This document shows positions 20,969 to 40,218 of a stretch of DNA of 64,000 bases, one piece after another. The position numbers and the translations under genes are program-made. Origin of the DNA: Leptolyngbyaceae cyanobacterium (GTDB taxonomy: Bacteria > Cyanobacteriota > Cyanobacteriia > Phormidesmidales > Phormidesmidaceae). The stretch is taken from positions 1,408,001 through 1,472,000 of the forward strand of contig CBDHHL010000032.1 of assembly GCA_965263355.1 (NCBI GenBank), read 5' to 3'. The first letter of the stretch is position 1; each line of letters opens with the position of its first letter. The notes under the pieces were generated by a model. It was given only the letters and a program-made list of their open reading frames with translations, searched no databases and was not told where the DNA came from.

Positions 20969-21085
20969 AGATGTTTATCTATTTGCTTGTACAAAGAGAC
21001 TGAATGGCTGAGTTGTAATCTGTTCTATCTTTCAATTTTAGACACAAGCTAAATGCATTCAACGAATTACTATCCTATCTCTCAG

Positions 21086-22244: not shown

Positions 22245-22254
22245 CTAAGGGTTC

Positions 22255-22402: not shown

Positions 22403-23143
22403 TTACTCCTGATCCTGGAGCAGTACAACAGATTGCCAGGCAGCTTGCAAATGCTGATTATTGGGATAAGCTTTCATCTCACTCATTAGCACCCCCAACA
22501 TGTCATACCAGTATCCATTTTCCGCTAGCCACTGAGCCTGCTCTAATGGTTTTTTCTGCTGAAGTAGTCGGGTCAGCAATGGTGTAGCAGCCACCCGTTG
22601 AACCCAGCCCACCAAAACAGGATTATCAGGATCTGCCTGTTCGCCACAAACTACCACAACATGCCAACGGTAGTTACGACCCACGGCTAGAGGGGGTGCT
22701 TCATCTGATAATGACAGCCTAATAAACCCAGTTTGATCAGCTACCCCAAAGTCTTCCTCTGCATAATATAGTCCCGCTTCATCCATCACCGTGAGAATTA
22801 ATCGTTGAACCGATGAGTTTTCTGGCACCTGTACAACTAAGGTAGGACGATCTGCTAAGGTAAGTCCAAAGTTATTCTCAGGCATGAGGACTTCTACTGA
22901 TTGTTCTTCTATATTACAAAGGCCACCATTGCGTGAACCGACACCAGATGTATCTTTAGGGGCATCGTCTCCAGGTGGATCAAATGTTTCATGAAAAACA
23001 ATTTTGTCTATGGTATCCACCCTTTTAGGAGATTGTTGGGCGTTTACAGATCGAGTAATAGCAGCCGTAACTATCACAGAAAGTACAGCAGTCATTCCCC
23101 AGTAAGCAATTGGGGAAGAATTAAAAAATGTCCCGAGGTGCAT
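22403..23143 (-). CDS. DUF928 domain-containing secreted protein
   Basis: Signal peptide (VNA-QQ), FDPPGDDAPKDTSGVGSR..C, GLTLADRPT, LAVGRNYRW, GWVQRV, AENGYWYD. Confidence 0.9.
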   Translation of the reverse strand: MHLGTFFNSSPIAYWGMTAVLSVIVTAAITRSVNAQQSPKRVDTIDKIVFHETFDPPGDDAPKDTSGVGSRNGGLCNIEEQSVEVLMPENNFGLTLADRPTLVVQVPENSSVQRLILTVMDEAGLYYAEEDFGVADQTGFIRLSLSDEAPPLAVGRNYRWHVVVVCGEQADPDNPVLVGWVQRVAATPLLTRLLQQKKPLEQAQWLAENGYWYDMLGVLMSEMKAYPNNQHLQAAWQSVVLLQDQE

Positions 23144-23512: not shown

Positions 23513-26128
23513 TTACAACCAATTCCCAATCAAAACAAAGGGAGCCCAATAGTAAGGGTGCCTATAGTCATCACTACGCAACAAAGACAGCTGTGCTTGT
23601 TGCAGCGACCCAGCCCGAGAGCGCCCCACCTGACTAAGCTGTTGATAAAACTGATGCATCAGTTCTGCGGTAGAAAAGTCTTCCACCGACCACAGTGAGG
23701 CCACAGTACTCCTTGCCCCAGATCGTACTGCTAAACCAGCCATTCCCAATGCCGCTCTGTCATCCCCCTTAGCCGTCTGACAGGCACTTAAAATCAGCAT
23801 CTCAACGGGTGACTTTAGCTCTTGCTGCTGCAATAGATTCTCCAGTTCTTTTAGTTGTAGACGATTGTTCCAGGTCAAAATAAACGTCTCATCAGCCTTT
23901 GAACTAAACTGCCCATGGGTAGCCAAATGCACGATAGAAACAGGACGTTCAGTCACCTCTTTTGCCAGGTTATCCTTGGTGAAATTTTGATTGAGCAAAA
24001 TTTGTGTCGATGCTTGGGCTTTAATTTGCCGCATTTCAACATCCACCGCTGGCAACGCATTAAACCCTTGATGAGCAACCGACATTCCCCCGGCTAACAC
24101 CTGCAAGCCCTGGTTAGGCACCCCTGGCGACTCAAATAGCTGTAAACCAGGCGTCAGAGCTAAACTGTAGCGTTCGATCAGAAATTGCTTGCCATCATGT
24201 AAAACCGCCATCGGTAAGTTGCGCAGGGAGCCATCCAGCACAAATACCAGTCGCTGGATGCCAGCTTCTGTCAAAGCAGACTCTGCCGGTCTTAGTAACC
24301 AATCGTAGAGTTGTTGGGCCGGGGGTAAGACCCGAGTTGCGGGAAAGGCTGGGTTTAAGGCCTGTCGTAGGCTCTGGAATGTTTTTTGTCGGGTCTGCGC
24401 AGATAGCGTACGGCCATAATGCTGTAGAGTTCCGTCAGGTAAGGCCAGAATCACCTCTAATCGATCGTCTAGCAAAATGGGATATAAGACAGCCGCTTGG
24501 GGATCAATCTCATCAATGGGACGCACAGTATAGGTCAGACAAGCCTCTCGAAAATAGTTTTCTAGCTCGGCTAGCTGTAGGCCTTCGATCACCTGACGAG
24601 AATGGGCTAGTCGCTGTTGTTGTTGCTCGGGTGGTAGGTCATCTACAGTCTGTAACAATAGCTGCACTAATTCGCGATAGACCGGTTCGACTTGTTTTTG
24701 AAACGAAAACTGGATGTCTGGATTCGATGCTACCAAATCTTGATCTAACGATTCTAGTAGAGTAACCGCTTGATCATAGGCATCTATCGCTAGCTCAGGT
24801 TGTTTCTGTGCTTTGAGAATTCGTCCCCGTTGCCACTGCCAAATAGCAGTAATTTCGTCAGCCTGTACCTGCTTTGAGCGCTGAATTGCTTGTTCTGTTA
24901 GGGAGAGTGCCTCAGACCATTGTTGTGTTTGCTCATAAAGCTTGCCGAGCTGCCCAAGGGCATAGGATTCGGCATGAGGATCGTTAAGGGTTTGAGCTTG
25001 GTGGATGGATTGGGCGAGGAGGTGGGCGAGGGAGGGGAGGGAGAGAGGGGGAGAGGGGGAGGAAGAATTGGATAGTAGGGTTTCTGCAAAATTGACCTGG
25101 GCATAGATGCCCCAACGGCTGGGGGGTAGGGTTTCTAGTTGAGACTTGATGCCGTTGGCTAGGGCCAGGACAGTGGTCTCCTGGGACTGATCGAGCAAAA
25201 GTCGCAACTGATTAAGGGCGGTTTCTAGCCAGAGGCGGGATTGGTGTGGTGTGGTGTCGAGGACCTGCTGATAAAAGGAGAAAGCGGTTTTAAGATTGCC
25301 TTGGGCTTGGGTGGTGTTGCCAAGTTGGAAACGGGCGTTTGCGATCGCACCCCCATCATTCAGTTCCTGAGCAACGGTCAAGCTATCAGTCAATACAGTC
25401 TGAGACTCTTCCAGATCTCCAGTGGTTCTCAGAATAATGCCTATTGACTGCAGACCCTGAGCTTTAAGCAATGAAACTGGCTGGTTGGCTAACGTCTGAC
25501 GCAGATCGGTGATTAATCTACTGGCGCGGGCATAGTACCCCAGGGAGCGTAAGGCCTGTATCTGATTCGTTTGGGTCAACATCACTCCGGCGGGATCATG
25601 TCCTTGGCGATAGTTTTGTTCTGCCGTCTGCCATGTGGCCAACGCTTGAGCAGGGTGTCCCTGGTGAAACTCTAAAGTACCCTGGGCATTGAGTACCTGG
25701 GCTAGGGCAATGGGCTGGTTAGATACATGGGCATGGGCCTGTGCGATCTCATCTTCTGCCGCTGACCACTGTCCAAGATCTTGATAGGCCAGGGTGAGAT
25801 AGGTATAGGCGAGAGCCTGATCCGCTGATGTGGTCGCTGTTGCTATGGCCTGTTGCCAAAGGTTAATGGCCTGATGAAGTTGTCCGGCATGATAATACTG
25901 TTGCCCTTGCTCCAGTAGCTCTGCTGGACTGTTGTTTCCACTGTCATGACGGGTATTGACAGAGAGTTCACTGGTAGCTAATTCAGACGCTATAAGGTGA
26001 ATGGGGGGGCTGTAAATGCCGTGGGATTGCGACGATAGCTGTTCAACGGCTTCTGTTTTGACAGTACCGATGAGCACAAAACAACAGCTTAAAAATAGCA
26101 GCAGCCCGTAGCGAAGCCGTCGGTTCAT
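23513..26128 (-). CDS. Secreted TPR + CHAT (caspase-like, HetF-associated) protease
   Basis: Signal peptide MNRRLRYGLLLFLSCC..., TPR repeats, catalytic VHLATHGQF and LILSACQTA, terminal HPYYWAPFVLIGNW. ATG 26128 has an AAGGAGG RBS and an ATGA overlap with the upstream stop. Confidence 0.93.
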   Translation of the reverse strand: MNRRLRYGLLLFLSCCFVLIGTVKTEAVEQLSSQSHGIYSPPIHLIASELATSELSVNTRHDSGNNSPAELLEQGQQYYHAGQLHQAINLWQQAIATATTSADQALAYTYLTLAYQDLGQWSAAEDEIAQAHAHVSNQPIALAQVLNAQGTLEFHQGHPAQALATWQTAEQNYRQGHDPAGVMLTQTNQIQALRSLGYYARASRLITDLRQTLANQPVSLLKAQGLQSIGIILRTTGDLEESQTVLTDSLTVAQELNDGGAIANARFQLGNTTQAQGNLKTAFSFYQQVLDTTPHQSRLWLETALNQLRLLLDQSQETTVLALANGIKSQLETLPPSRWGIYAQVNFAETLLSNSSSPSPPLSLPSLAHLLAQSIHQAQTLNDPHAESYALGQLGKLYEQTQQWSEALSLTEQAIQRSKQVQADEITAIWQWQRGRILKAQKQPELAIDAYDQAVTLLESLDQDLVASNPDIQFSFQKQVEPVYRELVQLLLQTVDDLPPEQQQQRLAHSRQVIEGLQLAELENYFREACLTYTVRPIDEIDPQAAVLYPILLDDRLEVILALPDGTLQHYGRTLSAQTRQKTFQSLRQALNPAFPATRVLPPAQQLYDWLLRPAESALTEAGIQRLVFVLDGSLRNLPMAVLHDGKQFLIERYSLALTPGLQLFESPGVPNQGLQVLAGGMSVAHQGFNALPAVDVEMRQIKAQASTQILLNQNFTKDNLAKEVTERPVSIVHLATHGQFSSKADETFILTWNNRLQLKELENLLQQQELKSPVEMLILSACQTAKGDDRAALGMAGLAVRSGARSTVASLWSVEDFSTAELMHQFYQQLSQVGRSRAGSLQQAQLSLLRSDDYRHPYYWAPFVLIGNWL

Positions 26129-29100
26129 CCTGCCCTCCTTGCTGTTACACATTGGGTGTGTGGGAGTTTAGTCATTTGAGAAGCCTGTGCCACCAACTGC
26201 ACACGTCCTTGGTCATCAATCAACCAGTCCTGTGCTTCTACAACTTCTTCAGGGGATAACGCCTGTTCAATTACTTCACCAGTGACTCCATCAGGGCGTC
26301 GCCAGTCTTGTAGTACGATTTGTCCCTGCCAGAGCTGACGCGGGTCCGTAGGCAGGCCTCCTCTCCCCGTGGTTACTAGAGAATTGTTACTGCCAGCGGC
26401 ACAGCGAGCGGTGATTTGGTCGGCAGATGCCAACTGGTCTGGTAGCTCTAACTCTGAGGGTTCAAGTTCTGGATTGAACTGTTCAATAATCACTTCACCA
26501 TCAAGACCAAACTGTGAGCTGGCGGTAATGTCATTAAAAGGCGTGAGATTTTCTCGAAAGTCAATACCCAAAAGTCCTTGAGTAGCAATGGTAATATTGC
26601 CACCGTTACCTTCAAACGCATTGGCTGTAATGTCGCTATTCTCGCCAGGAACCGCAATAATAAAGCCATCGCCAAACGTAATATTGCCCCCATTGCCCCC
26701 AGCTCCAGCCTGGCCAGCTGTGGTGGAGATTATGCTACCGTTCCGTAAGAACAGTAGATCATCGATTTGTAGCGCCACGTTGCCCCCCTCTCCCGATGCG
26801 CTAGTCGCAGTGATATTACCCTGATCCAAAGACAACAACCTGGCTCCGATGCCAATATTGCCAGCGTCACCCTGACCTTCGCCACTGACGGTCACAGTAG
26901 CCCCATCTCGAATTCGGAACTCTCCTGTGGTGACTTGAATATCTCCTCCGGTCCCCGTAGCGGTTTCAAAGGAAGAAGCCAGCAGACCACTGGCAATACC
27001 CGTATCGGTGGGATCAATCAAATCGATTGACTCAGTGGCAACCACGGTCAAATCTCCAGCTTTTCCCGTACCAAATGTTGTAGTAATTGCCTGGGCTCCC
27101 CCGCTAGCCCGCATCCGTTGAGTTTGCAGTTCAATATCACCAGAGGTTGCTGCTGTAAACGACCCAGTGGCGAGTAAGGAGCCCTCTAGCTGTAGATCGT
27201 TAGTGGCCGTGATGTTAATATCACCACCTGCCCCGTTATTTAAGGTGGTGGTGGCTACCAACGCCCCATTACGGGCAATAAATTCGGATGTCCTAATTTC
27301 CACATTGCCAGCAGAGCCCTCACCGGCAGCTACGGTCAAAATACCCTGGGTAAAGTTATCCACGCCTAAGGTACCATCAAGGGCCGGGTCAATAATCTGT
27401 TCTTTTAGGACAGTAAAACCATTGCCCACAATCTCAACAGATTCACTGGCATCAATCCGAATATTGCCTCCATTTTCCACAGTCGTTGTGGATGCATTAA
27501 TCTGACCATTATTCAGCTTTAGGCTATCGGTAACAATGTCAATGTCTGCCCCTGCGCCATTACCTAAGGTAGCTGTGGTAATTTCGCCCCCATCCTTTAC
27601 TATTAGCTGCTGGGTAGTAATATTTACCGGTCCAGAATCACCGCTTGCCAGGGAGTTAGACGAAATTCTACTGGCTGTGTCTCCAGCGGCATTAATGCCA
27701 ACAACCTCGATTCGATCCCTTGCTTGCACCGTGAGAATTCCTCCATCGCCTGCTCCAAACGTATTAGAGGCCAGTAGGCTACCATCCTGAATCGATAGTG
27801 CTTCAGCGACAAGGGACATGTCACCAGCAGCCCCTGGCGAAATCGATGTAGTAATCACGCGAGCCCCCCCTGTCAGGGTGACCGTTTCCGCTTGAATCTC
27901 TAAATCACCCGCATCTCCACCTAAAAAATCAGTGCTCGTAAAGATTCCGCTGGTGCCTTGTAGATTAATATCTTCAGCAACGATAGATAGATTGCCACCT
28001 TCCCCCAGCACTGATGAGGTACTAATCCCAGCGCCATTGCGCAAGTTTAACTGCTTAGTGTTGAGGATAATGGCACCTGCTTTTCCAAATCCAAACCCGC
28101 CAGCAAAAATGGAACTGCCATTGCGGGCTAGCTCGATAATTTCTGCAGCGGACCCCGTTGGTGAAAGGTTTGATGGCCCTGGCAAAGAGCCAATCAGATC
28201 GATGGAGTCAGTCACATTGACAATCACATCCCCCCCGTCCCCCGTCAGAGATGTGGCCGACGAGAGTCCATAGGCCTCAACGGTCACGGGTAAATTAAAC
28301 CCAGGGGTACGAATAACTTGTAAGGATCGGGCATTGAGCACTAAGTCCCCTGTATCTGCTGTGCCAAAGTCAGTGCCAGCAAAAATGCCTGTATTACGCA
28401 TAACGATATCCTCGTCAGCATTGATAAAGACACTGCCACCGACGGCATCTTGAAACGGTCCTAAGAAAAGCAGGATAGATTCATCTCGACTCAGGGTACC
28501 GATGGAGGTCTCGTTTAGATCCATCGATTGGGCAGAAATGCGAATATCGCCGCCCACACCATTGCCAGCCATGCGATTAATGATGCGGTAGTTGTCAGCG
28601 GCGAGGGCACCGCCACTGGTGAGGGTAATCTGACCAGACTGCAACCCGTTGGCGCTAATGTCACCAAAGCGAGAAATGGGTTGGGGCGATCGCAAATCTA
28701 AATCCCCCCCAGCCGTAATGGTAATGTCTCCCGCCGTACCTGAAAAATCGGCGATAGTTCCAGTTGTAATGGAGCTGTCGGTCGCTATTTGGCCATTGAT
28801 GGCAATGTTTTCAGCAGCCGTGATGGTAATATTACCTGATTGATGATCCCCGTCGGATATCAAGTTATCGGTGACAGTAATGGAGCCTGCTAAGCTTGTA
28901 ACATCAATATTGCCACCATTGTCTCTTGTACTGTGGCTATCCAGCAGCCCAACGGTGATATCGCCCAAGGCAGAGAGGATAATATCACCGCTGTCACCAT
29001 TGCTATTCGTCGTAATGACGCTACCATCAGCGGTATTAATTTGATTTCCAGACAGCTCTACCTGACCACCAGGAGCAAGTAACGACCCCAGATTTCGAAC

Positions 29101-29820
29101 ATCGCCCCCCAGCAAGGTCAAATTCTGTTGTGGATCAACAGCTAAGATACCGCGATTCTCTAATAGGCTATTTCTGGTACTTGCACCATACTGAATCCCT
29201 GGTGCCACATTCAAACTCAACAGCGGTGATGGCACATCAGGCTGCACAGTACTAAATTCATACCCATCAATCCACAGGCTGTCTACAGTAGTTGCCGTAA
29301 ATGAGCCAGCAATATCTAACTGGGCCGCCTCACCAAACACAATGCCGTTAGGATTTAGCAAAAACAAGTTGGCTGGACCGTTAACCCCCAGCGTGCCATC
29401 AATAGCCGACGGTTGATTTCCTGTGATGCGAGTCAGAATATTGGTAATGCCCGCTGGGTTAGTAAAGTAAACCTGTTGCCCTTGGTCAATATTAAAGTCA
29501 GAAAAACTGTGAAATAGACCTGTACCACGGACAGCACCGCCCTCCAAACGTACTCCATCGGGAGTGCTGATTACCGTTGAACCTTCATTCCCAAGGGTAG
29601 TATCCGGAATCACCTGAGCCAGGGCATTTTGGAACGTAACCAGGGGAGCAGCTAGCAAGAAACCTGCCACAGCCCCTCTCAAGGCCGTCCAACTAAAATG
29701 CAAGCTAATCCTAAATCTGAATGCAGCCAATCCGACTAAAAATGGACAAAGTTGTAGGGGCAATCCCTTGTAGTTGCCCTGGGATATTGGGGGCAGGCAA
29801 CCAGGATTTTGTGTAAGCAT
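26125..29820 (-). CDS. Filamentous haemagglutinin N-terminal domain protein (TpsA-like exoprotein)
   Basis: AQVIPDTTLG, LFHSFSDFNI, NLFLLNPNGIVFG, many GxGGxI beta-helix repeats, cyanobacterial C-terminal TGRGGLP..P / EAQDW motif. Confidence 0.93.
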   Translation of the reverse strand: MLTQNPGCLPPISQGNYKGLPLQLCPFLVGLAAFRFRISLHFSWTALRGAVAGFLLAAPLVTFQNALAQVIPDTTLGNEGSTVISTPDGVRLEGGAVRGTGLFHSFSDFNIDQGQQVYFTNPAGITNILTRITGNQPSAIDGTLGVNGPANLFLLNPNGIVFGEAAQLDIAGSFTATTVDSLWIDGYEFSTVQPDVPSPLLSLNVAPGIQYGASTRNSLLENRGILAVDPQQNLTLLGGDVRNLGSLLAPGGQVELSGNQINTADGSVITTNSNGDSGDIILSALGDITVGLLDSHSTRDNGGNIDVTSLAGSITVTDNLISDGDHQSGNITITAAENIAINGQIATDSSITTGTIADFSGTAGDITITAGGDLDLRSPQPISRFGDISANGLQSGQITLTSGGALAADNYRIINRMAGNGVGGDIRISAQSMDLNETSIGTLSRDESILLFLGPFQDAVGGSVFINADEDIVMRNTGIFAGTDFGTADTGDLVLNARSLQVIRTPGFNLPVTVEAYGLSSATSLTGDGGDVIVNVTDSIDLIGSLPGPSNLSPTGSAAEIIELARNGSSIFAGGFGFGKAGAIILNTKQLNLRNGAGISTSSVLGEGGNLSIVAEDINLQGTSGIFTSTDFLGGDAGDLEIQAETVTLTGGARVITTSISPGAAGDMSLVAEALSIQDGSLLASNTFGAGDGGILTVQARDRIEVVGINAAGDTASRISSNSLASGDSGPVNITTQQLIVKDGGEITTATLGNGAGADIDIVTDSLKLNNGQINASTTTVENGGNIRIDASESVEIVGNGFTVLKEQIIDPALDGTLGVDNFTQGILTVAAGEGSAGNVEIRTSEFIARNGALVATTTLNNGAGGDINITATNDLQLEGSLLATGSFTAATSGDIELQTQRMRASGGAQAITTTFGTGKAGDLTVVATESIDLIDPTDTGIASGLLASSFETATGTGGDIQVTTGEFRIRDGATVTVSGEGQGDAGNIGIGARLLSLDQGNITATSASGEGGNVALQIDDLLFLRNGSIISTTAGQAGAGGNGGNITFGDGFIIAVPGENSDITANAFEGNGGNITIATQGLLGIDFRENLTPFNDITASSQFGLDGEVIIEQFNPELEPSELELPDQLASADQITARCAAGSNNSLVTTGRGGLPTDPRQLWQGQIVLQDWRRPDGVTGEVIEQALSPEEVVEAQDWLIDDQGRVQLVAQASQMTKLPHTQCVTARRAG
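29708..29814 (+). repeat. ~107-bp MITE copy lying in frame within the 5' end of the FHA gene
   Basis: ATCCTAAATCT...CCGACTAAAAATGGAC...GTAGGGGCAATCCCTTGTAGTTGCCCT...CAGGATTTTGTGT aligns end to end with 55271-55376. Confidence 0.75.
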
Positions 29821-30063
29821 AGGCAATCTAAAGCACCCATTCGCGTGGGGTTAACCACACTGTGAATCTACGCTTTGATATTTCAGTGCTAAATGATAAT
29901 TTCATCCCAACTTTATACGTCTTTGCAATATACCTCACTTTTCTTACCTTTTGCACATTAGGTAAGTTTGGTGCATTGAAGTAATAGAAGTGAGGTGATT
30001 GATAGGTTCCTTCTCTTTGACACCTTTGCAACTAGTGTTTTCAGCTAAAGTTCGGCTATGGCT

Positions 30064-30107: not shown

Positions 30108-30188
30108 GGTTTGCTTGTCAGTTTGAGTCAATGCTATGAGCTGACTGGCCTATTTGTTCTTTGTTTGTTACCTGGAGAGAGACAACCG

Positions 30189-30551
30189 ATGCAACCGATG
30201 GAACCGATGCTTGGGCAGATCACTATATTTGCGGGCAACTTTGCCCCTAGAGGCTGGATGTTTTGTGATGGTAGAGAAATGCTAATCAACGATAATGACG
30301 CTCTGTATAGCATACTAGGAACTACCTATGGAGGCGATGGACGACGTACCTTTGCCCTACCCGATCTTCGAGGTCGTGTGCCTGTTCATGAGGATTCTGA
30401 TCATAGGCAAGGAAGCCAGGGTAACCTCACAAACGAGCTCACGCAGTATGAACGTGGTAAAGGAATAGAAACAGGAGCCGCACCTTATTTAGCCGTTAAC
30501 TACATCATTGCAGTTCAGGGTATATTTCCCTCTCGCAACAACTACTACTAA
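30189..30551 (+). CDS. Phage tail-collar domain protein (microcystin-dependent protein MdpB-like)
   Basis: GQITIFAGNFAPRGWMFCDG...LYSILGTTYGGDG..TFALPDLRGR, C-terminal PYLAVNYIIAVQGIFPSR; GGAGA RBS before ATG 30189. Confidence 0.9.
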   Translation: MQPMEPMLGQITIFAGNFAPRGWMFCDGREMLINDNDALYSILGTTYGGDGRRTFALPDLRGRVPVHEDSDHRQGSQGNLTNELTQYERGKGIETGAAPYLAVNYIIAVQGIFPSRNNYY

Positions 30552-30589
30552 GCTCTGGTGACCAATGGGATGATGGGCGATCTCACTAA

Positions 30590-30630
30590 TCTCTATCGGC
30601 GTTCCTCATGTAAGGGAACGCCGATAGAGA
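30590..30630 (+). terminator. Strong hairpin after the tail-collar gene (terminator or RNA stabiliser)
   Basis: 16-bp perfect stem TCTCTATCGGCGTTCC / GGAACGCCGATAGAGA, 9-nt loop, no clear U-tract. Confidence 0.55.
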
Positions 30631-30683
30631 ATCGCCTGGTTCGAGACTAATCCTCGAACCTTCCTAGCCCTTTACAACTTCCC

Positions 30684-30727
30684 AAAAAGATTTTTCTTAG
30701 ATCTGTGCATTTAAGAAAAATCTTTTT
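30684..30727. promoter_or_regulatory. AT-rich 16-bp inverted repeat upstream of the LodA-like gene
   Basis: AAAAAGATTTTTCTTA-N12-TAAGAAAAATCTTTTT. Confidence 0.45.
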
Positions 30728-30974
30728 CCTTAAGAAACTGAGGTGATGGCTATCGCTGAGTGTTCTCAGATGACGGATTCGGGAATATCACAAAATATAA
30801 CTTATTTTGTTAAGTGTTAAATACTAAAGACGTTAGATAGATATCAAACGAGAGAATGTAGGATAACAAAGGTATAAAGACCAAAATCGTTACCTTTTGC
30901 GACATATGTCTGCTTTATACGTTGTTTAGATAGCCAGTGTATTTCCAGCTGTCATACTACTGTTTGAGGCCCTA

Positions 30975-33014
30975 TTGATGAGCACAGATAACGCTGCCAA
31001 AAATATTGCTTACGTTGCCATTCATCCCGGTATTGGTATTGCCCGAGTTGGCAATTGTCGAGAGGAGAATGGATACTACATCGGTCCTGAAGTGACTAAT
31101 CCTAGATACGATGATCCTGGCCATGCCAAGGAAAAGCATGGAAAACATCCTGGACATTATCAGCCTGGCCAGATGAAGGATGATACAGGGGCGCTCAAAC
31201 GTCAGGCCGCTCGTTTTCGCATCTATGGCTATGACAAAGATGGTAATGCGATTTGTGAGATCACAGCAGATGATCCGAAGACTACCATTGAATGGACGGT
31301 GGAAATTGCCAATAAAAAAGCTGGATGGTATGAATTCGTTGAAGCCCTAGACCTCCCCGGTGGTCCTAAGGCCGATCGCCGAAATGCTAATATTCCTAAA
31401 AAAGATCGCCACAAATTAGAAATTCGACCCGAGCCCCAATCTATCTCAGGTAAACATCAAACATCGTCACCATTTGACGATGGTGAATTTATGGGCAAAA
31501 AGGTCTATCTGGGAGAACTTCGTACCGACGGCAAAGGACGATTATTGTTTTTAGGGGGATATGGCGAGTCTCACTCAGCCTATGCTGATAATCCACCTGC
31601 CAGCTTTGGTAACAACAATGGCTGGTGTGATGATATGTCTGATGGTTCAGTGTTGGCCAAGGTCACCATTGATGGCAAGACCTTTGAGGCTGATCCGGCC
31701 TGGGTGGTAACGGCACCGCCCAACTATGGAACTACCCTGATCGGTGTGAAAACCATGTGTGATGTGATGACCGATGTGTTTATCAATCCCACTGCGCGAA
31801 GTTATTGGTGGTCTTTTCCTAAGGAGATTTCGTTTACAAAACATATTCTGCCCATTTTTCAACAGTTTAGTGATGCCCAATGGGTGAACTATGGCTTCTC
31901 AGTGCAATTTGGCTACAATGGGCCATTTGACTTTACCAATAAGGCCTTTCTCAAGAAGCTGTCTCAAATCCCTTGTAAAACTGAGTCTAGCGGTTCACAA
32001 ACAGATGTTTACCAGGAATTTCGACGACAAATTTACAATCAGTTCCGTCTGCCCACACAAACAGAACCCAAATTTCAACCGGATCCCAACTCTCCGACGG
32101 TGCAGCTATGGCCCTGGATGTATGGGGATACGGTACAGCTGGGAGGAGCACCCCAGGATGCCAATCAGTATCTGTGTTTGACCAATACGCAACTGATGAT
32201 TTTAGAAAAATGGGTCGAGGGTGATTTTATCGATGATTTGAAATTTCATCATGGCGATGGCACCCATGTTGATATCGCCAAACTCTATCACCATACCCAT
32301 ACCCACATTGAAAAGTATCCCATTGAGGAACAACCGTTAGAACTGGATCGGGCGGCCATGCATTTCTGTCTTGGCGGTGCATTTCACCCAGGTTGTGAGA
32401 TGACCTGGCCCATGCGCCATGCCACCATGTATAGGGCTCCTTTCCGGATCCGTCCCCGCACAGACAAAAATCCCGAACCGGACTATGGCGACCATTTAAG
32501 CCACAAAGAGGTGGTGGATGATAACGGACCATTGTATTTTAATGCGCCTGGGGATATTACTCGCTGGATGGCGGTACCCTGGCAGACGGATACCTCTAGC
32601 TGTCGGTCTGGTTATATTCCCAAGTATGATCCATTTTTGCCCACGTTCTGGCCTGCACGGGTGCCGAACCATGTGCTGACTAAAAAGGATTATGCCATTG
32701 TGATGGATCCTAAAAAGAAGAAAGAAGAGCGTTTAGAGGCCTTTAATCGTCGAGCAGTATGGTTACGGGGGTTACCAGGGGAATATTTGAGCCAGATTCG
32801 TGAGATGGTGACAGAATTTGGCAAGCTAGGAGTTGTGGAGAAGAGAGAAGGCCCTGAGGATCCAGAGTTTCCGGATGTGATCTATGTGGAGTCTGAAGTG
32901 GGCTATGAAGAACCGGAATCTCCCGATAAAAACTTGCTATGTGAGTATGTGCCATCGGCAAATGAGGCGCGCTACTGGCGTGAGCGTCAGGAACGGTTAG
33001 GCGGCGATCGCTAG
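30975..33014 (+). CDS. LodA/GoxA-family CTQ-dependent amino-acid oxidase
   Basis: IHPGIGIARVGN, LKRQAARFRIYGY, GWCDDMSDG, GGAFHPGCEMTW, GDITRWMAVPWQTDTSSC (Asp-x3-Cys), FWPARVP. Confidence 0.93.
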   Translation: MMSTDNAAKNIAYVAIHPGIGIARVGNCREENGYYIGPEVTNPRYDDPGHAKEKHGKHPGHYQPGQMKDDTGALKRQAARFRIYGYDKDGNAICEITADDPKTTIEWTVEIANKKAGWYEFVEALDLPGGPKADRRNANIPKKDRHKLEIRPEPQSISGKHQTSSPFDDGEFMGKKVYLGELRTDGKGRLLFLGGYGESHSAYADNPPASFGNNNGWCDDMSDGSVLAKVTIDGKTFEADPAWVVTAPPNYGTTLIGVKTMCDVMTDVFINPTARSYWWSFPKEISFTKHILPIFQQFSDAQWVNYGFSVQFGYNGPFDFTNKAFLKKLSQIPCKTESSGSQTDVYQEFRRQIYNQFRLPTQTEPKFQPDPNSPTVQLWPWMYGDTVQLGGAPQDANQYLCLTNTQLMILEKWVEGDFIDDLKFHHGDGTHVDIAKLYHHTHTHIEKYPIEEQPLELDRAAMHFCLGGAFHPGCEMTWPMRHATMYRAPFRIRPRTDKNPEPDYGDHLSHKEVVDDNGPLYFNAPGDITRWMAVPWQTDTSSCRSGYIPKYDPFLPTFWPARVPNHVLTKKDYAIVMDPKKKKEERLEAFNRRAVWLRGLPGEYLSQIREMVTEFGKLGVVEKREGPEDPEFPDVIYVESEVGYEEPESPDKNLLCEYVPSANEARYWRERQERLGGDR

Positions 33015-33095
33015 ACCCACCCCGGAGCCCCTCCCAGGAGGGGAAAAGTTGTCCCGAGTGCCAGTGAGGGTTGTGGTAGATAGTTTTGCTAATCT

Positions 33096-34211
33096 ATGCC
33101 TACTGATTCAACAATGTTGACAGCTGACGTTGCCATTGCAGGCTCCGGCCCAGCTGGTTCCATCGCTGCCCTTGTTTTAGCCCAGAAAGGTCATTCAGTT
33201 TGTTTGATCGACGACGTGCAACCCGGTGCTCCAAAAGTGGGCGAGTCTCTCCCAGGGGCGGCTCGCCCATTGTTACGAGATTTAGGTCTGCTCACACTTG
33301 TGGAGGCGGGGGGCCATACCCCTTGTTATGGCAATCTCTCGGTATGGGGTTCCGATCAGGTAATCGAAACGGATTTTATCCGCGATCCGAATGGGTTGGG
33401 CTGGCATTTGGATCGGCCTAAATTTGATGAATCTCTTCGACAGGCTGCTTTAGCTGCAGGGGCACAGTACCATCAGTCGCGGGTTAGCTCAGTGCTGTGG
33501 TCTGGTGAGAATTGGTTGGTGACGTTGTCGTCTGGGCAAGAGATAACAATGCACTGGGTGTTGGATGCGACGGGGCGGCGGGCGGCACTGGCACGTCAGC
33601 TGGGGGCACGGCGGCAGCGGGATGATGATTTGGTGGCGGTGGTGACCTGGGTGCCGTCTTCTGAAGAGGATCGAGATACGCGGACGCTAATTGAGGCGGT
33701 GCCGGATGGATGGTGGTATACAGCGCGGTTACCGGGAGTTAAGCCTCAGCGGGTGGTGGTGTTTCATACGGTGCCGCAGGTGGCGGGTAGGCTACGGCGT
33801 GAGCCTAAGGTCTGGCTGGATTATTTGTCTCAGGCGCATCAGGTAAGCCGCGTGTTGGGGCGTATTTTGTCGGCGGATGAGCTGGCGGCGATGGTGGCGG
33901 CTCCTAAGCCGTTTTTGTTGACGGAGGCTTGCGGGGCGCGGTTGGATCGGTTTTGGGGGCCGGGCTGGTTGGCGGTGGGAGATGCGGCGCTTTCGTTTGA
34001 TCCGTTATCGTCCCAGGGGATTTTTAATGGGTTGTATACGGGGATGATGGCGGGGCGGACGGTGGATGCGGTTTTGTCGGGGCAGGCGGATGTACTACAA
34101 GGATATGCGACTCAGTTGGAAAGTATTCGGGCAGCGTATTTAAGACACCAGCAAATGTTTTATCAGGCAGAAGAGAGATGGTATAAGAATACGTTTTGGG
34201 CTCAGCGCTGA
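33096..34211 (+). CDS. LodB/GoxB-like FAD-dependent oxidoreductase (CTQ maturation flavoprotein)
   Basis: GSGPAG, KVGESLP, GWHLDR, DATGR, EAVPDGWWY, VGDAALSFDPLSSQGI; directly downstream of the LodA-like gene. Confidence 0.88.
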   Translation: MPTDSTMLTADVAIAGSGPAGSIAALVLAQKGHSVCLIDDVQPGAPKVGESLPGAARPLLRDLGLLTLVEAGGHTPCYGNLSVWGSDQVIETDFIRDPNGLGWHLDRPKFDESLRQAALAAGAQYHQSRVSSVLWSGENWLVTLSSGQEITMHWVLDATGRRAALARQLGARRQRDDDLVAVVTWVPSSEEDRDTRTLIEAVPDGWWYTARLPGVKPQRVVVFHTVPQVAGRLRREPKVWLDYLSQAHQVSRVLGRILSADELAAMVAAPKPFLLTEACGARLDRFWGPGWLAVGDAALSFDPLSSQGIFNGLYTGMMAGRTVDAVLSGQADVLQGYATQLESIRAAYLRHQQMFYQAEERWYKNTFWAQR

Positions 34212-34556: not shown

Positions 34557-34612
34557 ATTTTCAACACTTGGTCTGACTTGCTTTGCTATGCTGCTTAGTG
34601 GATAAAGTCGAG
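34557..34612 (+). mobile_element. Solo right end of the IS701-family element
   Basis: 56 bp matching the reverse complement of 21086-21141, including the transposase stop codon and TIR TGGATAAAGTCGAG. Confidence 0.9.
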
Positions 34613-34773
34613 GTCAGGTGAGAAAATGGCGAAAAGTAGGATCTTCCTTAAACTGTATCCAGCTTATAAACAACGCAGTTATAAATGAGCTAGAACAATA
34701 ATATAGACAAAAAGTATCAGTAAATTGGAAGCTTAAGCAGTCTGAATTTCGCGCCATCTAACCATGTACTAAA

Positions 34774-35013
34774 ATGTTACTTTTTGAGCGGGGTCACTTT
34801 ATCTATGGCGGAACAACAGTTGCACTGTCGATGTTGATAACGGCAACTGCATGCCAGCCAGAAAATTTGTCAACACACTACATCGGCGATATTTTGCAGC
34901 CAATTGTGTTACCCAATAGTTTTGAACCCCCCGGCGATAAGTCCCCTAATCGGACTTCAGGCCTTGGTTCTCGTAGTTACCGGCAGCAGCCCTTTCAGAC
35001 AAGAATGGGGTAG
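34774..35013 (+). CDS. Small putative lipoprotein carrying the DUF928 N-terminal FxPPGD...TSGxGSR motif
   Basis: Hydrophobic segment ending ITATA-C; FEPPGDKSPNRTSGLGSR is 12/18 identical to the motif in the DUF928 protein. Confidence 0.65.
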   Translation: MLLFERGHFIYGGTTVALSMLITATACQPENLSTHYIGDILQPIVLPNSFEPPGDKSPNRTSGLGSRSYRQQPFQTRMG

Positions 35014-35037: not shown

Positions 35038-37788
35038 CTACGTCAAATGGGTAGACGGGCACTGATTGGTGGGTTTGCCTAATAAGCTGCTAATTAATTG
35101 CTGATTTTCTTCACTCTCAGTTTGCTGGAGATATTCTAGGGCAATTTGGCCGACGGCAGGTTTTTCCTGGGAAATCATAACCAGTTGTTTTACAGTTTGT
35201 TGTAGTTGAATTCGCTTTAGTCGCTGGTTTGCCATAATAACAAATGCCAGGATAGACAGCCCCCAGGAGAGGACCGCCGGCAGCAAGGGTAACCATAAGC
35301 CTGCTAAAAAACTGGCATAACAGAGAAGAAATAGGACAATAAAACCCAGCGTGGCAATTGTTAAAACACGTCTCGGGGATTTGAGCCACCAAACCATACT
35401 GGTGCCCATCAATGCCCACATCAGCCCCCACAATTGTTCCTGGGGCTCCGACCATGTGTTTAATAGCGGTCGTTCATCCAGGGCTGCGGCTAACAGCTGA
35501 CTGATAATATTGGCATGGACTGCGATGCCCGCCATTTCCTCCTGGGGAAGTCCAAACCAAAAGGTATTGTAGGGGGTACCCACCAGGTTTTGGACACTCT
35601 CGGCAATGGGACCAACCAGAACAATGCGATCGCGCATCGCCCCTGTGGGTACATTTCCCGTCAATACTTGCTGTAAAGAATAGGTTTGGAATTTACTTTG
35701 AGTACCCCAATAGTTAATCAAGATTTGATAGCCACCATCATCTGCCCGGACATAGCCGCCATGATTACTTCGGAAGGGATAAAGCGTGGCCTGTCCTAAC
35801 CGAACGATGTGGGAAGACTGAGGTAACTCATTTGGATGAATGCCATCCGCCTTCAAATAATCTAAAGTTAGCTTTAAGGCAAGACTATGACGAAGTTTTC
35901 CATCGGGTGTACGCAGAGAGAGCAGGGCTCGCCGTAGGTTACCATCAGAATCAAATACCTGGTCTGTAAATCCTACCTGGTCAAGGCTAGCCAGTTGGAC
36001 AGGAGGTGCCACCTGGGTGCCAACAACTTTTTCAATGCCTACTAGATTCGGCATTGTGGCAAATAGCTGGTTAAGCTGTTGTGTGCCTGGTTCAACAGGC
36101 AAATCACGATAAAAAATTAGACCAATTTGTCGGGGTTGCTGAGCCGCCAGCTGTCGTAGGACATCCGCAATCACTTGGTCAGGAATAGGATAGCGGCCTA
36201 TCCGTTGTAAATCTGTTTCATCAATGGTAACTAGGGTAATGCGAGGATCCATCGGCACAGTGCCATGGCGTAGTTGAAAAAAACCATCTAGCAACGTCCA
36301 TTCACTTCCCTGTAGCCAACCGGTCAGACACAGTAACCATACCAATAGAGCCGTTGCCCCGCCCACCAAGAAAACCCACCAGGGAGGAATACGTAACCGC
36401 TTAACCCGTTGTCGGCTGGTTAATTTTGCCTGGGCCAGTACCTGATTGGCTTCGCGGGTAACCGCCAGGGCAAATTGAATTTGTTCTCGCTGTTGTTGTT
36501 CTTCTTCTAACTGAGTTTCAATACGGTATTGTTCTTGTTGTTGGCTAATTCTCAAAAAACGATAATCTAAATCGCTCAGCTGTTTTTCATCAGCCCAGGC
36601 AATGGCTTCTTGTAAGGCCAACCCTTTAAGCAGACAAGTTGCGTCCGTTTGCTCGGTGGCAATCCAGTTATCAAAGGCGGCTGAATAAGGGCGCAGTAGG
36701 GATAACTGCCGCGTTACCCAACTATTGTTAAAGATATTTCGGTAAATTGGATTTTTAACTTGGAGATGTCCCTGACGATTGACCACTAGTCCTGAGAGAA
36801 GTAGCTCCGTTTGTTCCCGACTCCCGTCACAGGGAACGTCCTGGTTTGCTAAGATTTGCTGATAAAGCCCTAGTAAACGCCCCGTAAGGGTGGGTTGGTT
36901 GAGGATGCGATCGCGAATAGTCCTCAAATGTTCAGGCTCATCGCGAGTTTCCCAATTTTCAATCAATCGGGTTTGCACTACCCAGTTGATCCAGTTAGTC
37001 TGGGCTGCAGAGTCTGTCGGGGGAGGGGCTGCTTCGATCAGCTGCTGACATATTTTTTGAGTCAAAAACGGTTGACCGGCGGTCCATTCCAACACATCCG
37101 CCAGGTGAGAGGGCGACAGACCTAGCCCTTGCAATCCGGTGGCCAGGGGAGTGGCTTCTGCTAGCGAAAAGCCTTCCAATGTAATCGCTTGGCCAATATT
37201 AAAAGGCGTTCGTTGCCTATCCTGGAGTAAATCAGCTGGACTGGCTACCCCAAACATAGCAAACGTAATACGATGATAGTTGGGATCTATAGCACGTCTG
37301 TTATAGCAGTGGCGAATCGTCGCGAAAAAGTCATCAACCGCAAAGGGAAGTCCCAGAACATTGTCAATTTCGTCTAAAAAGATATAGAAATGGTCGTCTG
37401 GATATTGGGCCAGAAGTTGATCCCCAATAAAACGACTAAATTTCTGGGGTAATGAGACATCACGTTGGCACTGCCACCAGTGTTGAAAGTGCTCCTCATT
37501 AGGCAGCCGTAGATCATGCCATAGTTCAGCCAATAGCCCTTTGTACCACTGTATAGGCGTTACCCGTTTACTGCCGATGCTGGTTAAATCTACCATGGCA
37601 CAGCGATGGCCTGCCTGCTGCAGTCGGAACTTTGTCCGCACCATGAGGGAAGACTTGCCCATCTGCCGAGAATTGAGCACATAGCAAAATTCGCCTGCTG
37701 TGAGTGCTTTTAGCAAGCTCGTATCGGTCTGTCGCTCCACATAGGTGGGATCTGTTGCATGCAGAGTGCCACCAACTTGATATCGCAT
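35038..37788 (-). CDS. AAA_35 (STAND-like) ATPase fused to CHASE2 sensor domain
   Basis: YQVGGTL..YVERQ, LNSRQMGKSSL, IFLDEID; TM; CHASE2 motifs DPRITLVTIDETD, D.DG.LRR, GIAVHANIISQL; three C-terminal TM helices. Confidence 0.9.
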   Translation of the reverse strand: MRYQVGGTLHATDPTYVERQTDTSLLKALTAGEFCYVLNSRQMGKSSLMVRTKFRLQQAGHRCAMVDLTSIGSKRVTPIQWYKGLLAELWHDLRLPNEEHFQHWWQCQRDVSLPQKFSRFIGDQLLAQYPDDHFYIFLDEIDNVLGLPFAVDDFFATIRHCYNRRAIDPNYHRITFAMFGVASPADLLQDRQRTPFNIGQAITLEGFSLAEATPLATGLQGLGLSPSHLADVLEWTAGQPFLTQKICQQLIEAAPPPTDSAAQTNWINWVVQTRLIENWETRDEPEHLRTIRDRILNQPTLTGRLLGLYQQILANQDVPCDGSREQTELLLSGLVVNRQGHLQVKNPIYRNIFNNSWVTRQLSLLRPYSAAFDNWIATEQTDATCLLKGLALQEAIAWADEKQLSDLDYRFLRISQQQEQYRIETQLEEEQQQREQIQFALAVTREANQVLAQAKLTSRQRVKRLRIPPWWVFLVGGATALLVWLLCLTGWLQGSEWTLLDGFFQLRHGTVPMDPRITLVTIDETDLQRIGRYPIPDQVIADVLRQLAAQQPRQIGLIFYRDLPVEPGTQQLNQLFATMPNLVGIEKVVGTQVAPPVQLASLDQVGFTDQVFDSDGNLRRALLSLRTPDGKLRHSLALKLTLDYLKADGIHPNELPQSSHIVRLGQATLYPFRSNHGGYVRADDGGYQILINYWGTQSKFQTYSLQQVLTGNVPTGAMRDRIVLVGPIAESVQNLVGTPYNTFWFGLPQEEMAGIAVHANIISQLLAAALDERPLLNTWSEPQEQLWGLMWALMGTSMVWWLKSPRRVLTIATLGFIVLFLLCYASFLAGLWLPLLPAVLSWGLSILAFVIMANQRLKRIQLQQTVKQLVMISQEKPAVGQIALEYLQQTESEENQQLISSLLGKPTNQCPSTHLT

Positions 37789-38194: not shown

Positions 38195-39601
38195 TTAGTG
38201 CACAAGGGCATCTAACTGATGGCTGAAATAAAGACGATAAAGTTCGCAACTTGGCTTAACTAGGGTACGCTCAAACCGAATTAGCCCCAAACTATCAAGC
38301 TTATAACTAGCAATGGCATCCAGGGCAATTCCTTCCTGACTGGTAACCACCTGATAATAGCTGGTTGCTATGGCTGGATCACTTTGGAGCATTGTCAGAT
38401 AGTTCTGAAGATGATGGCGATAAATCCCCTCGCTGGTAGCAGCCGTGGACACAATTTGCCCCAAAGACCTTTGGCCTTGCTGCAATGTATAAAATGCCAA
38501 CCCAGCTAAGTAAGGATGACCGTTGATCAGATGGTAAAAAGAAGGCAGCGATTGCCCGGAGGGTTCATGCAAAAACCTTTCCACACCATAATGATGGGCC
38601 AGGGTCGTCAACTGCTCCAGGGTAAAGGGGATTAATTTAATCGGCAAACCCACGTTAAAAGGAGATTGATTTAAATGCAATGGTACATAGAGATCGGTAG
38701 CGTGAACCAGGACCAGCCGTAGTTTTTGCCAAATAGCACTATCTTTAGAGCGTTCATGCCATACCCGTAGCATGGGCAAAAAGTCTTGGACAATAGATTC
38801 GTATTCAAATATGCGATTCAGTTCGTCAATCCCTAACACCAGGGGAGCCGCAATCTCTTTCAATAGATAGCGCTCAAAGTAAAGCTTACAATTGACTTTA
38901 CTACCCATTTCTACGTCCCACATGGCCTCTACCTTAGACGGTAGCCCCAGTTGCTGACTGGCATTCGCACATAACCAACGAAGAAATCGATCCAGGCGAT
39001 CAAAAATTTCTCGGTCAACTTCCTGAAAATTTAGGGTAACGGTATGGTATCCCTGACGACGACCATGGGCTAGCAAGCGATTGAGCAAGGAACTTTTGCC
39101 CATGCGACGAGGGCCTTTAATCCTCAATAGACAGCCAGGGTAGTCTAATTCGCTAAAAGCATTGGTTTCCAGCGGTAGGCGCTCAACATAGAGCGGCGAC
39201 TCTAACGATAAGGGGCCGGATGGAAATCGTCTTGCCGCCATGGCATAGTCTACCGTTGGCAGCAGGTGATAATTTATGGTGTCAGGCAGTGGCTCTAGGG
39301 TGGGGCTAATGCTGATGTGGCGTGATATCGGTGAGTTAGTGATCGAAGCTTGCTGCAAACGGTTGGGGGTCAACATCAACCGCAGACTTTTTTTGCTGAC
39401 GTTTTCGCCTAAGGCAACAGAGAGTTCTGACCACAGCTTAGAGCCGATCTGCTTGATATATTCCGTAGCATAGCTGGAGCTTTGGGCGATCTCAGCATAG
39501 CTACGCTGAGACCAAGACTCATTTAAGACCAAGCGCTCCAGCGTTCCCAACGGTCGTTGTAATAGCTGTTCTACTTCAAGTACAAGCGTATCTACATCCA
39601 T
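38195..39601 (-). CDS. N-terminal HTH + AAA_35 (STAND-like) ATPase
   Basis: W.QRSYAEIAQ...IKQIGSKLW..LS.ALGENVSKK HTH; SPLYVER, Walker A GPRRMGKSS, LGIDE, QSPFNVG. Start placed at ATG 39601; the ORF is open from 39685. Confidence 0.88.
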   Translation of the reverse strand: MDVDTLVLEVEQLLQRPLGTLERLVLNESWSQRSYAEIAQSSSYATEYIKQIGSKLWSELSVALGENVSKKSLRLMLTPNRLQQASITNSPISRHISISPTLEPLPDTINYHLLPTVDYAMAARRFPSGPLSLESPLYVERLPLETNAFSELDYPGCLLRIKGPRRMGKSSLLNRLLAHGRRQGYHTVTLNFQEVDREIFDRLDRFLRWLCANASQQLGLPSKVEAMWDVEMGSKVNCKLYFERYLLKEIAAPLVLGIDELNRIFEYESIVQDFLPMLRVWHERSKDSAIWQKLRLVLVHATDLYVPLHLNQSPFNVGLPIKLIPFTLEQLTTLAHHYGVERFLHEPSGQSLPSFYHLINGHPYLAGLAFYTLQQGQRSLGQIVSTAATSEGIYRHHLQNYLTMLQSDPAIATSYYQVVTSQEGIALDAIASYKLDSLGLIRFERTLVKPSCELYRLYFSHQLDALVH

Positions 39602-39759
39602 CAGAGAACAAGGTTGAGCTATAAAACAATTAGCGCTCAAAGATAATGCTAGACAGGCTCTACCATTACCAAGGTCGGTGAGCACTGAATATTGGTTTGA
39701 CGCTAGATTTTACAGAATCCTACCATTTTCGCTGGGGAACCTTGACTCCGGAACTCGTC

Positions 39760-40218
39760 CTAGGCTGCTTTCACAAGGACCGTGTCTCCCTCAATCATGG
39801 CATCATAGGCATCTAGCGGTCTGACGGCAGGTCCAACCGTTGCGGTACCGTCCGTGGCAAATTTTGAACCATGACAGGCACAGGAAAATTCTTTTTCCTG
39901 CCAATCAACGGTGCAGCCTTGGTGGGTACAGGTGGCATTGAGGGCAATCACACTGTCGGTATTAGCTGGGTCGCGCACTACGATTACAGCACCAGCTGCC
40001 AGGCCTTTCTTGGTCACAAAGCCTTTGGCGTCTAAATCTGCTACCGTGCCGACGGCAACAAAGCCATCGGTTCTGGAAGCTTCATTGGCTGGAGTTGCAG
40101 TCCCTTCTGTGGGGGTATCCGATGCGGTTTCTTTTGGGGTGCAGGCTGCGATCGCAACCGGCAACGATGTGGCCAAAAATCCCAACCCGACAAAGTTTAC
40201 AAATTCACGACGTTTCAT
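39760..40218 (-). CDS. Rieske [2Fe-2S] lipoprotein with Tat signal (PetC-like)
   Basis: MKRREF twin-arginine signal, lipobox IAAC, CTHQGC and CACHGS. Confidence 0.92.
   Translation of the reverse strand: MKRREFVNFVGLGFLATSLPVAIAACTPKETASDTPTEGTATPANEASRTDGFVAVGTVADLDAKGFVTKKGLAAGAVIVVRDPANTDSVIALNATCTHQGCTVDWQEKEFSCACHGSKFATDGTATVGPAVRPLDAYDAMIEGDTVLVKAA

Follow-up and report, generated by a model that had tools for sequence, protein, structure and literature searches.

The peptide-pheromone cassettes of Firmicutes, such as agr, ComCDE and ComQXPA, combine a precursor gene with an adjacent gene encoding a membrane receptor, a proteolytic maturation of the precursor, and peptide variants that are matched to receptor variants. 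In cyanobacteria, the PatX/PatP/HetR system of Nostoc PCC 7120 includes a small gene encoding a Sec-type signal and a short conserved Gly/Arg-rich motif, which is released outside the cytoplasm by a peptidase (PMC12756182, PMC7761841). HetF, a cyanobacterial CHAT protease, cuts PatU3 between Arg117 and Ser118 (PMC9457339); the available part of bioRxiv 10.1101/2023.06.23.546230 gives no cleavage site.

The ligands of CHASE2 domains are stated to be unknown (PMC10581220). Dgc2 of Leptolyngbya boryana is a CHASE2-PAS-GGDEF protein (PMC10581220), and All1219 of Anabaena PCC 7120 is a CHASE2 diguanylate cyclase that constitutes one of the main c-di-GMP sources (PMC13075795); the available text of these two papers proposes no ligand for either protein. 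In magnetotactic bacteria, MtxA is encoded beside a CHASE2 adenylate cyclase (PMC4439547). DUF928 (PF06051) is named in the accessible part of PMC5587647 and no function is described for it in the literature searched. In the same literature, which includes few subscription papers and, as supplements, those of PMC8557916, no publication proposing a CHASE2 peptide ligand was found.

The small gene presented here encodes 79 aa and is located at positions 34774-35013 (+ strand) of the window, i.e., the whole stretch of 64,000 nucleotides that was analysed. By analogy, its system would work like a peptide-pheromone cassette, with no sequence relation expected; it would differ from agr, ComCDE and ComQXPA by its diderm host, its CHASE2 receptor, its several output domains and the existence of polyprotein and DUF928-fused precursors. 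The small gene shares with patX its size, a predicted Sec-type signal and a short conserved Gly/Arg-rich motif. However, its probable target is a membrane sensor and not the cytoplasmic HetR, and the candidate protease is of the CHAT type and not PatP. A preliminary description of the sequence had found the layout loosely reminiscent of PatX while pointing out the lack of RGSGR. RG(S/T)GR is indeed absent from the ORF, and the resemblance holds for the architecture and for nothing beyond it. The PatX profile (NF047413 / PF28278, cut-off 30 bits) does not match the window ORF, and the best relative reaches 14.4 bits.

The junction Arg67-Ser68 of the product is comparable to the Arg-Ser bond of PatU3 and is, by analogy, a candidate cleavage site; HetF destroys a cytoplasmic regulator, whereas an exported CHAT protease would here make a signal (PMC9457339). 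Dgc2 and All1219 belong to the receptor type that 25 of the 30 genes of a second stand-alone family follow (PMC10581220, PMC13075795), whereas the receptor of the window carries an AAA_35 domain and no cyclase. The parallel with MtxA, an exported protein with Ig-like and helical parts whose gene neighbours that of a CHASE2 receptor (PMC4439547), is a loose one and bears on the DUF928 body, absent from the small gene. Among the matches listed for the DUF928 model, PDB 4Z29 has the highest query TM-score (0.42), a weak match at rank 34 with an E value of 3e-3.

The small gene and its conservation

The 79-aa ORF that had been delineated in the preliminary description is confirmed by the ORF list, its orthologues and dN/dS as a stand-alone gene, which would encode a peptide precursor. 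Residues 1-27 (34774-34854) form a predicted Sec-type export signal with a hydrophobic core at residues 15-27. The hydropathy peak of the window ORF is 1.78 (13-residue window) and those of the 12 other stand-alone members range from 1.82 to 3.0. The hydrophobic segment is thus found in all 13 members scored; cleavage sites are not conserved among them, A-x-A-like sites being present in several. Export of the precursor by Sec is predicted from this hydropathy. The segment had also been described as lipobox-like (ITATA-C). Lipoproteins are recognized here by the pattern [LVI][ASTVI][GAS]C, to which the A-T-A preceding Cys27 does not conform and which is absent from the first 45 residues of all 11 clade members. 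Furthermore, Cys27 is not conserved and is replaced by Ser in the nearest orthologue, which argues against a lipoprotein.

The 18-residue motif F50-R67 (34921-34974), the putative active peptide according to column invariance and codon changes, is followed by a 12-residue tail (34975-35010) that is variable in the clade alignment. The residue that follows the motif Arg (P1') is Ser in 10 of 11 clade members and Asn in the other, and the stop codon lies 9-14 codons past this Arg in all members. The window allele begins three codons later than its orthologues because of one extra base, as revealed by the alignment with locus L001: an ATG is found at the orthologous start position (34764-34773), one base out of frame. 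Base 34769 is absent from a low-depth contig of run X4, whereas X1 and X2 agree with the window. An upstream non-coding stretch (34615-34727), 70% identical over 115 bases to that of L001, is conserved and could be a promoter region. The promoter scan reveals no sigma-70-like site upstream of the small gene, and the promoter/terminator scan is at chance level. All these features are on the + strand.

Pfam and NCBIfam give no family for the window ORF or for 13-14 relatives, and the motif profile has no match below E 0.89 among PDB sequences. Trypsin-domain clusters of the ESM Atlas (0.91) were rejected as noise, the recognition being under the bar of the tool.

The first homologue found, P0001 (82 aa, 60% identity), is carried by L001, where a CHAT gene, a DUF928 gene and the small gene are successively followed by an AAA_35-CHASE2 gene on the opposite strand. 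Between the window ORF and L001, dN/dS is 0.16 across the 79 codons. Residues 44-68 are identical at 24 of 25 positions, with 13 synonymous changes versus a single non-synonymous one; the dN/dS of this motif region is 0.011, a value derived from small counts with synonymous sites close to saturation. Unlike these residues, the linker and the tail diverge. Among seven orthologues, 14 of the 18 motif columns are invariant and codons vary synonymously in all 14. In six genomes, the small genes share on average 16.4 of the 18 motif residues, compared with 14.7/18 for the DUF928 copies of these genomes. Selection on the small genes is therefore concentrated on the motif, as in a peptide-pheromone cassette.

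An alignment search of 172 genomes belonging to the family of G001, in which at most 32 candidates were scored per genome, combined with context reading, led to the identification of short orthologues in G001, G069, G077, G110, G053 and G045. An additional copy is found on L133, a 1.6-kb contig too short to show its context, and three more relatives (P0002, P0004 and P0006) are sequences without context. A search of a representative library gives four matches, three small genes and one DUF928. A filter built from the known members retrieves only this ORF in the window and nothing in 147,708 bases of other loci. L002 was dropped, as it matched the hydrophobic stretch only. The preliminary description had envisaged that the orthologues could be full-length DUF928 genes; they are short (80-97 aa) and conserved. 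These comparisons show that the 79-aa ORF is no DUF928 truncation but a genuine, conserved and selected gene, belonging to an unnamed family.

Relationship with DUF928 and origin of the small gene

DUF928 proteins share with the small gene product a signal-like N-terminal segment and the leader motif [FY]-x-P-P-x4-P-x4-G-x-G-[ST]-R, and their genes have a similar neighbourhood of CHAT, TPS and CHASE2 genes. The product of the small gene differs from them by the lack of the folded body (an Ig-like sandwich and helices) and of the Cys that follows the motif. The DUF928 gene of the window (22403-23143, - strand; identified by Pfam and BLASTP), likely parent of the small gene, carries the motif FDPPGDDAPKDTSGVGSR at 22984-22931. 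This motif and that of the small gene, FEPPGDKSPNRTSGLGSR at 34921-34974 (+), are the sole full-pattern matches in the six frames of the window. Their identity at 12 of 18 positions, already noticed in the preliminary description, holds when compared with 150 shuffles of the ORF (best 8, mean 5.9). The claim that there is no other similarity does not: BLASTP aligns residues 3-68 of the ORF with residues 6-72 of DUF928 (36%, E 1e-11), and the part preceding the motif alone scores 42 against the window DUF928, a score reached by none of 2000 shuffles. The equivalent score is reached by 9 of 2000 shuffles in G001, and in five other pairs the pre-motif similarity is faint or lacking (70-291 of 2000 shuffles). 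The window ORF has no match with PF06051 (184-position model, cut-off 26 bits); it possesses the DUF928 leader-motif feature ending in the invariant Arg, according to a criterion of our own that is not curated. The tblastn search suggested in the preliminary description reveals no remnant of the DUF928 body downstream of the small gene, either in the window or in L001.

In five of six relatives, a DUF928 gene is located directly upstream of the small gene on the same strand, with a Rieske gene in between in three of them. These three are G069, G077 and G110; the window carries a similar Rieske gene at 39760-40218 (-). Sequence similarity and gene order suggest that a tandem duplication of the DUF928 5' end probably gave rise to the small gene. 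The origin thus looks like the duplication of this whole end and not like the transfer of the motif alone that had been evoked. The duplicate probably took over or doubled a ligand role, with its own regulation. At L133:538-795, and also on L134, a frameshifted DUF928 (P0005) gives a signal-plus-motif ORF beside the true small gene.

In the window, the small gene and DUF928 are 11 kb apart, likely because of an IS-linked inversion. A DDE transposase element bounded by 19-base terminal inverted repeats (21081-22249, -; Pfam and repeats) lies directly behind DUF928, and an inverted copy of its 61-base end 21081-21141, found by repeat comparison at 34557-34617 (no strand assigned), is located 157 bases upstream of the small gene and would be the inversion breakpoint. 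The contigs of X1 and X2 end at the IS repeat and do not bridge the inversion join. The DDE element is apparently frameshifted, and the element and its 61-base end are multi-copy according to depth in the source runs. The inverted block comprises genes for a Tail-collar-domain protein, a LodA-like L-lysine epsilon-oxidase and a flavoprotein, LodB-like by its position (30111-34211, +).

Other carriers of the motif

The motif had been proposed to be a portable unit, which is borne out by its various forms: as a single copy that follows a signal-like segment in a small protein, as the leader of DUF928 proteins, and as arrays of 4-7 tandem copies. In an alignment of 41 DUF928 proteins, from which fragments and duplicates were excluded and whose rows were trimmed by hand to start near the motif, the motif Arg is invariant (41/41) and the Phe/Tyr, Pro-Pro, Pro and Gly positions are kept in 35-39 proteins. 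In the AlphaFold model of DUF928, this leader has no secondary structure and a pLDDT of 51-75, versus 81-96 for the body. Five DUF928 proteins (L081:856-2058 (-), L080:1438-2430, L076:1438-2424, L082:793-1713 (-) and L068:1072-2094) harbour, directly behind the signal, 4-7 tandem copies of an Arg-ended unit of 21-22 residues; the three of these genes with available context are flanked by an exported CHAT gene on one side and a CHASE2 hybrid kinase gene on the other. Another DUF928 (L093:886-1890 (-)) has a LysM domain between the signal and the motif, which suggests a tethering to peptidoglycan. The genomes G001, G107 and G230 have 18-20 DUF928 matches each, which implies many parallel channels. 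Conserved basic ORFs of 41-67 aa without signal and ending in [FY]xPxxxGxPxRxRGAGTR are found at L175:7283-7408, L173:7212-7352 (-) and L174:7929-8132 (-). Two of them stop at the Arg, none has a CHASE2 gene nearby, and the two that were scanned belong to no Pfam family. Basic ORFs of G003, G015 and G052, which have a similar Gly/Arg end and no signal, were excluded from membership.

A second stand-alone family was traced from a weak match in G179. A profile built from three of its sequences was searched in 401 genomes of the phylum, 15 candidates being scored per genome, and matched 34 of them (36 rows): five rows are of DUF928 length, one does not cover the motif, and 30 are short ORFs, found in 29 genomes and including the three profile seeds. 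The motif of this family is in the same register as that of the window (hhalign 80.8%, E 1.3e-5), and a hydrophobic N-terminal segment is present in all 30 members. Twenty-eight of them stop exactly at motif position 18, i.e., are ready-cut; 27 end in Arg and one in Met, the latter being counted against the rule of an Arg end. This suggests that the peptide is active with its C-terminus free at position 18, in which case tailed and tandem precursors would have to be cut behind the Arg. Twenty-five of the 30 genes follow a CHASE2-PAS-GGDEF gene on the same strand, 24 at 0.2-1.1 kb and one at 2.9 kb; the other five have no CHASE2 gene in the stretch examined, which counts against a ligand role. 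Neither DUF928 nor CHAT is found near any of the 30 genes in the stretches examined. The genome G548 carries a second gene of the ready-cut type (L241:4992-5240 (-)), located among unrelated genes with no CHASE2 gene in 11 kb and possibly on a mobile element.

In Nostoc PCC 7120, the likely member according to gene order is asl1218 (78 aa; tag guessed from the numbering), located between alr1217 (L-aspartate oxidase) and all1219. A deep proteogenomic study lists Asl1218 with the 616 proteins that escaped detection (PMC8557916, Tables S2C/S2D). This counts against the proposal, although small exported peptides are easily missed.

Receptor linkage, proposed signalling and alternative readings

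In the window, the small gene is convergent with the gene of an AAA_35 - TM - CHASE2 - TM protein of 916 aa (35038-37788, -; Pfam, hydropathy and an AlphaFold model with a pLDDT of 87.9), whose CHASE2 domain covers residues 479-795. This convergence, already noted in the preliminary description, leaves 24 bases between the two stop codons, and the protein would be the cognate sensor. A partner AAA_35 protein (38195-39685, -; Pfam and context), whose N-terminal ~120 aa have no assignment, is always encoded beside this receptor in the clade. The module of the DUF928 gene includes a TPS-domain (filamentous haemagglutinin-like) exoprotein that heads it (26125-29826, -; Pfam) and a TPR-CHAT caspase-like protease (23513-26152, -; Pfam and motifs) with a hydrophobic N-terminus and intact His746/Cys791 motifs, a candidate processing enzyme. 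The CHASE2 model has no Foldseek match at E<=0.001, and the best VIA Z is 5.3. In the CHASE2 alignment, several acidic residues are nearly invariant and could pair with the motif Arg, which is only suggestive.

The linkage of small precursor genes with membrane sensors is found in three groups. In all seven genomes with context (the window, G001, G069, G077, G110, G053 and G045), the small gene is convergent with an AAA_35-CHASE2 gene. In G011 and G007 (2/2), a variant stand-alone motif gene is convergent with another AAA_35-CHASE2 gene, with no DUF928 or CHAT gene in the 9-18 kb examined around it. The third group is the second family (25/30). Directly upstream of the variant peptide gene, G007 and G011 carry a caspase (Peptidase_C14)-nSTAND1 gene (L135:5475-8195 and L040:2965-5724 (-), respectively), and the partner of the receptor in G007 is an AAA_35-GGDEF protein. 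Among 19 further CHASE2 loci, taken as background from weak short-frame matches other than that of G011, none has a stand-alone peptide gene; DUF928 is adjacent in 14, and the remaining five, two of which are cut by contig ends, show no DUF928 or peptide gene in the stretch in view, which counts against a ligand role. The seven receptors of the window clade group together (100/100) in a tree built from 31 CHASE2 domains, in which nine receptors linked to ready-cut genes form a separate clade (100/98). Stand-alone peptides thus accompany at least two receptor lineages; the match between peptide class and receptor clade is expected from linkage alone and is no proof of co-evolution. Co-retention also points to the receptor. 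G045 keeps the small gene and a receptor orthologue (79%), its best DUF928 body and best CHAT reaching 28-31% and 60%. Conversely, G107 keeps orthologues of DUF928 (79%) and CHAT (85%), while its best receptor reaches 49% and the small gene was not found. Both comparisons suggest that the small gene is kept with the receptor and not with DUF928 or CHAT, each resting on one, possibly incomplete, genome.

From these sequence data, it seems rather probable that the 79-aa product is exported and gives rise to a released CHASE2 ligand by trimming after Arg67, for which an exported CHAT protease may be responsible. The precursor would be exported via Sec, as hydropathy predicts, and a cut at Arg67-Ser68 would remove the 12-residue tail and free F50-R67. 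The simplest cutter would be an exported TPR-CHAT protease such as that of the module itself. With its free C-terminal Arg, the peptide would be bound outside the cell by the CHASE2 domain of the tail-to-tail receptor and would switch this receptor on or off, and the signal would pass to the receptor's cytoplasmic AAA_35 domain and to the partner AAA_35 protein. The pointers to such processing are indirect and consist of the ready-cut and tandem forms and the specificity of HetF. The assignment to a CHAT protease is the weakest step, since in G045 and G007 the tailed peptide persists although no close CHAT orthologue is found.

The protein could also remain membrane-bound through a hydrophobic N-terminus that is not cleaved, or keep its tail beyond the Arg, and act in the producing cell as a tethered co-receptor or brake of CHASE2. 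The hydrophobic segment of the 13 members scored, with its non-conserved cleavage sites, and a linker of ~20-35 residues that could reach the CHASE2 domain are compatible with such a role, and the linkage data fit it equally. However, precursors with 4-7 copies, the strict Arg stop of the second family and the A-x-A-like sites of several members favour a freed or C-terminally exposed peptide, so that this role appears unlikely. Among the ligand, substrate and decoy roles that had been envisaged for the motif, a ligand agrees best with the data and a decoy least: the gene is kept together with the receptor, and the second family, which ends at the Arg, needs no cut. A decoy would tune DUF928 cleavage, either as a substrate or inhibitor of the exported CHAT protease or as a competitor at the DUF928 body; the Arg-Ser junction fitting HetF specificity, the ancestral place directly behind CHAT-DUF928 and the tail retained beyond the Arg in the window clade agree with it. 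It is nevertheless decidedly improbable, since the gene is kept with the receptor in G045 without CHAT and DUF928 orthologues and was not found in G107, which keeps them, and since 28 of the 30 second-family members have no scissile bond and no CHAT gene is found near them.

It is still harder to defend a PatX-like morphogen that would be exported, processed, re-imported and active on a cytoplasmic regulator such as HetR, with an incidental CHASE2 neighbourhood. The layout is the same (Sec signal, linker and Gly/Arg-rich end; PMC12756182) and second-family members have weak PatX matches (14.4 bits versus a cut-off of 30, in one of 14 proteins; Atlas 0.79). Nonetheless, RG(S/T)GR, described as essential in the available text of PMC7761841, is absent from the window ORF and 51 short proteins, and the CHASE2 linkage is strong in two separate receptor clades. 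As for a functionless, decaying 5' fragment of a duplicated DUF928, it is largely refuted for the family and is the least credible of these readings. The similarity extending over the signal region, the start shifted by one base in the window, the frameshifted DUF928 of the same shape (P0005, L133) and the IS breakpoint 157 bases upstream would be expected of such a relic. Against it stand the dN/dS of 0.011 on the motif region (with synonymous sites near-saturated), the position of the stop, which in every clade member comes 9-14 codons past the Arg, and the lack of any trace of the DUF928 body downstream.

Beyond the reading of the 79-aa product as a ligand precursor, a broader proposal is more tentative: Arg-ended peptides of ~18-21 residues could be the CHASE2 ligands of a large undescribed peptide-hormone system of cyanobacteria. 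This system would include four kinds of precursors (DUF928-fused, tandem polyprotein, tailed stand-alone and ready-cut stand-alone), matured by exported caspase-like CHAT proteases; each genome would hold up to ~20 paralogous channels, with kinases, diguanylate cyclases and AAA_35 NTPases as their outputs. The small gene of the window would then illustrate how a free ligand came into being when DUF928 was partly duplicated.

Extracellular CHASE2 sensors are widespread, and a defined 18-mer makes the question of their ligand testable with a synthetic peptide. A genetic test also exists in model strains, with asl1218/all1219 as designated by gene order. The CHASE2-PAS-GGDEF type of cyclase suppresses motility and biofilm in Leptolyngbya boryana (PMC10581220). 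If true, the proposal would provide a function for DUF928 and for many exported CHAT proteases of cyanobacteria.
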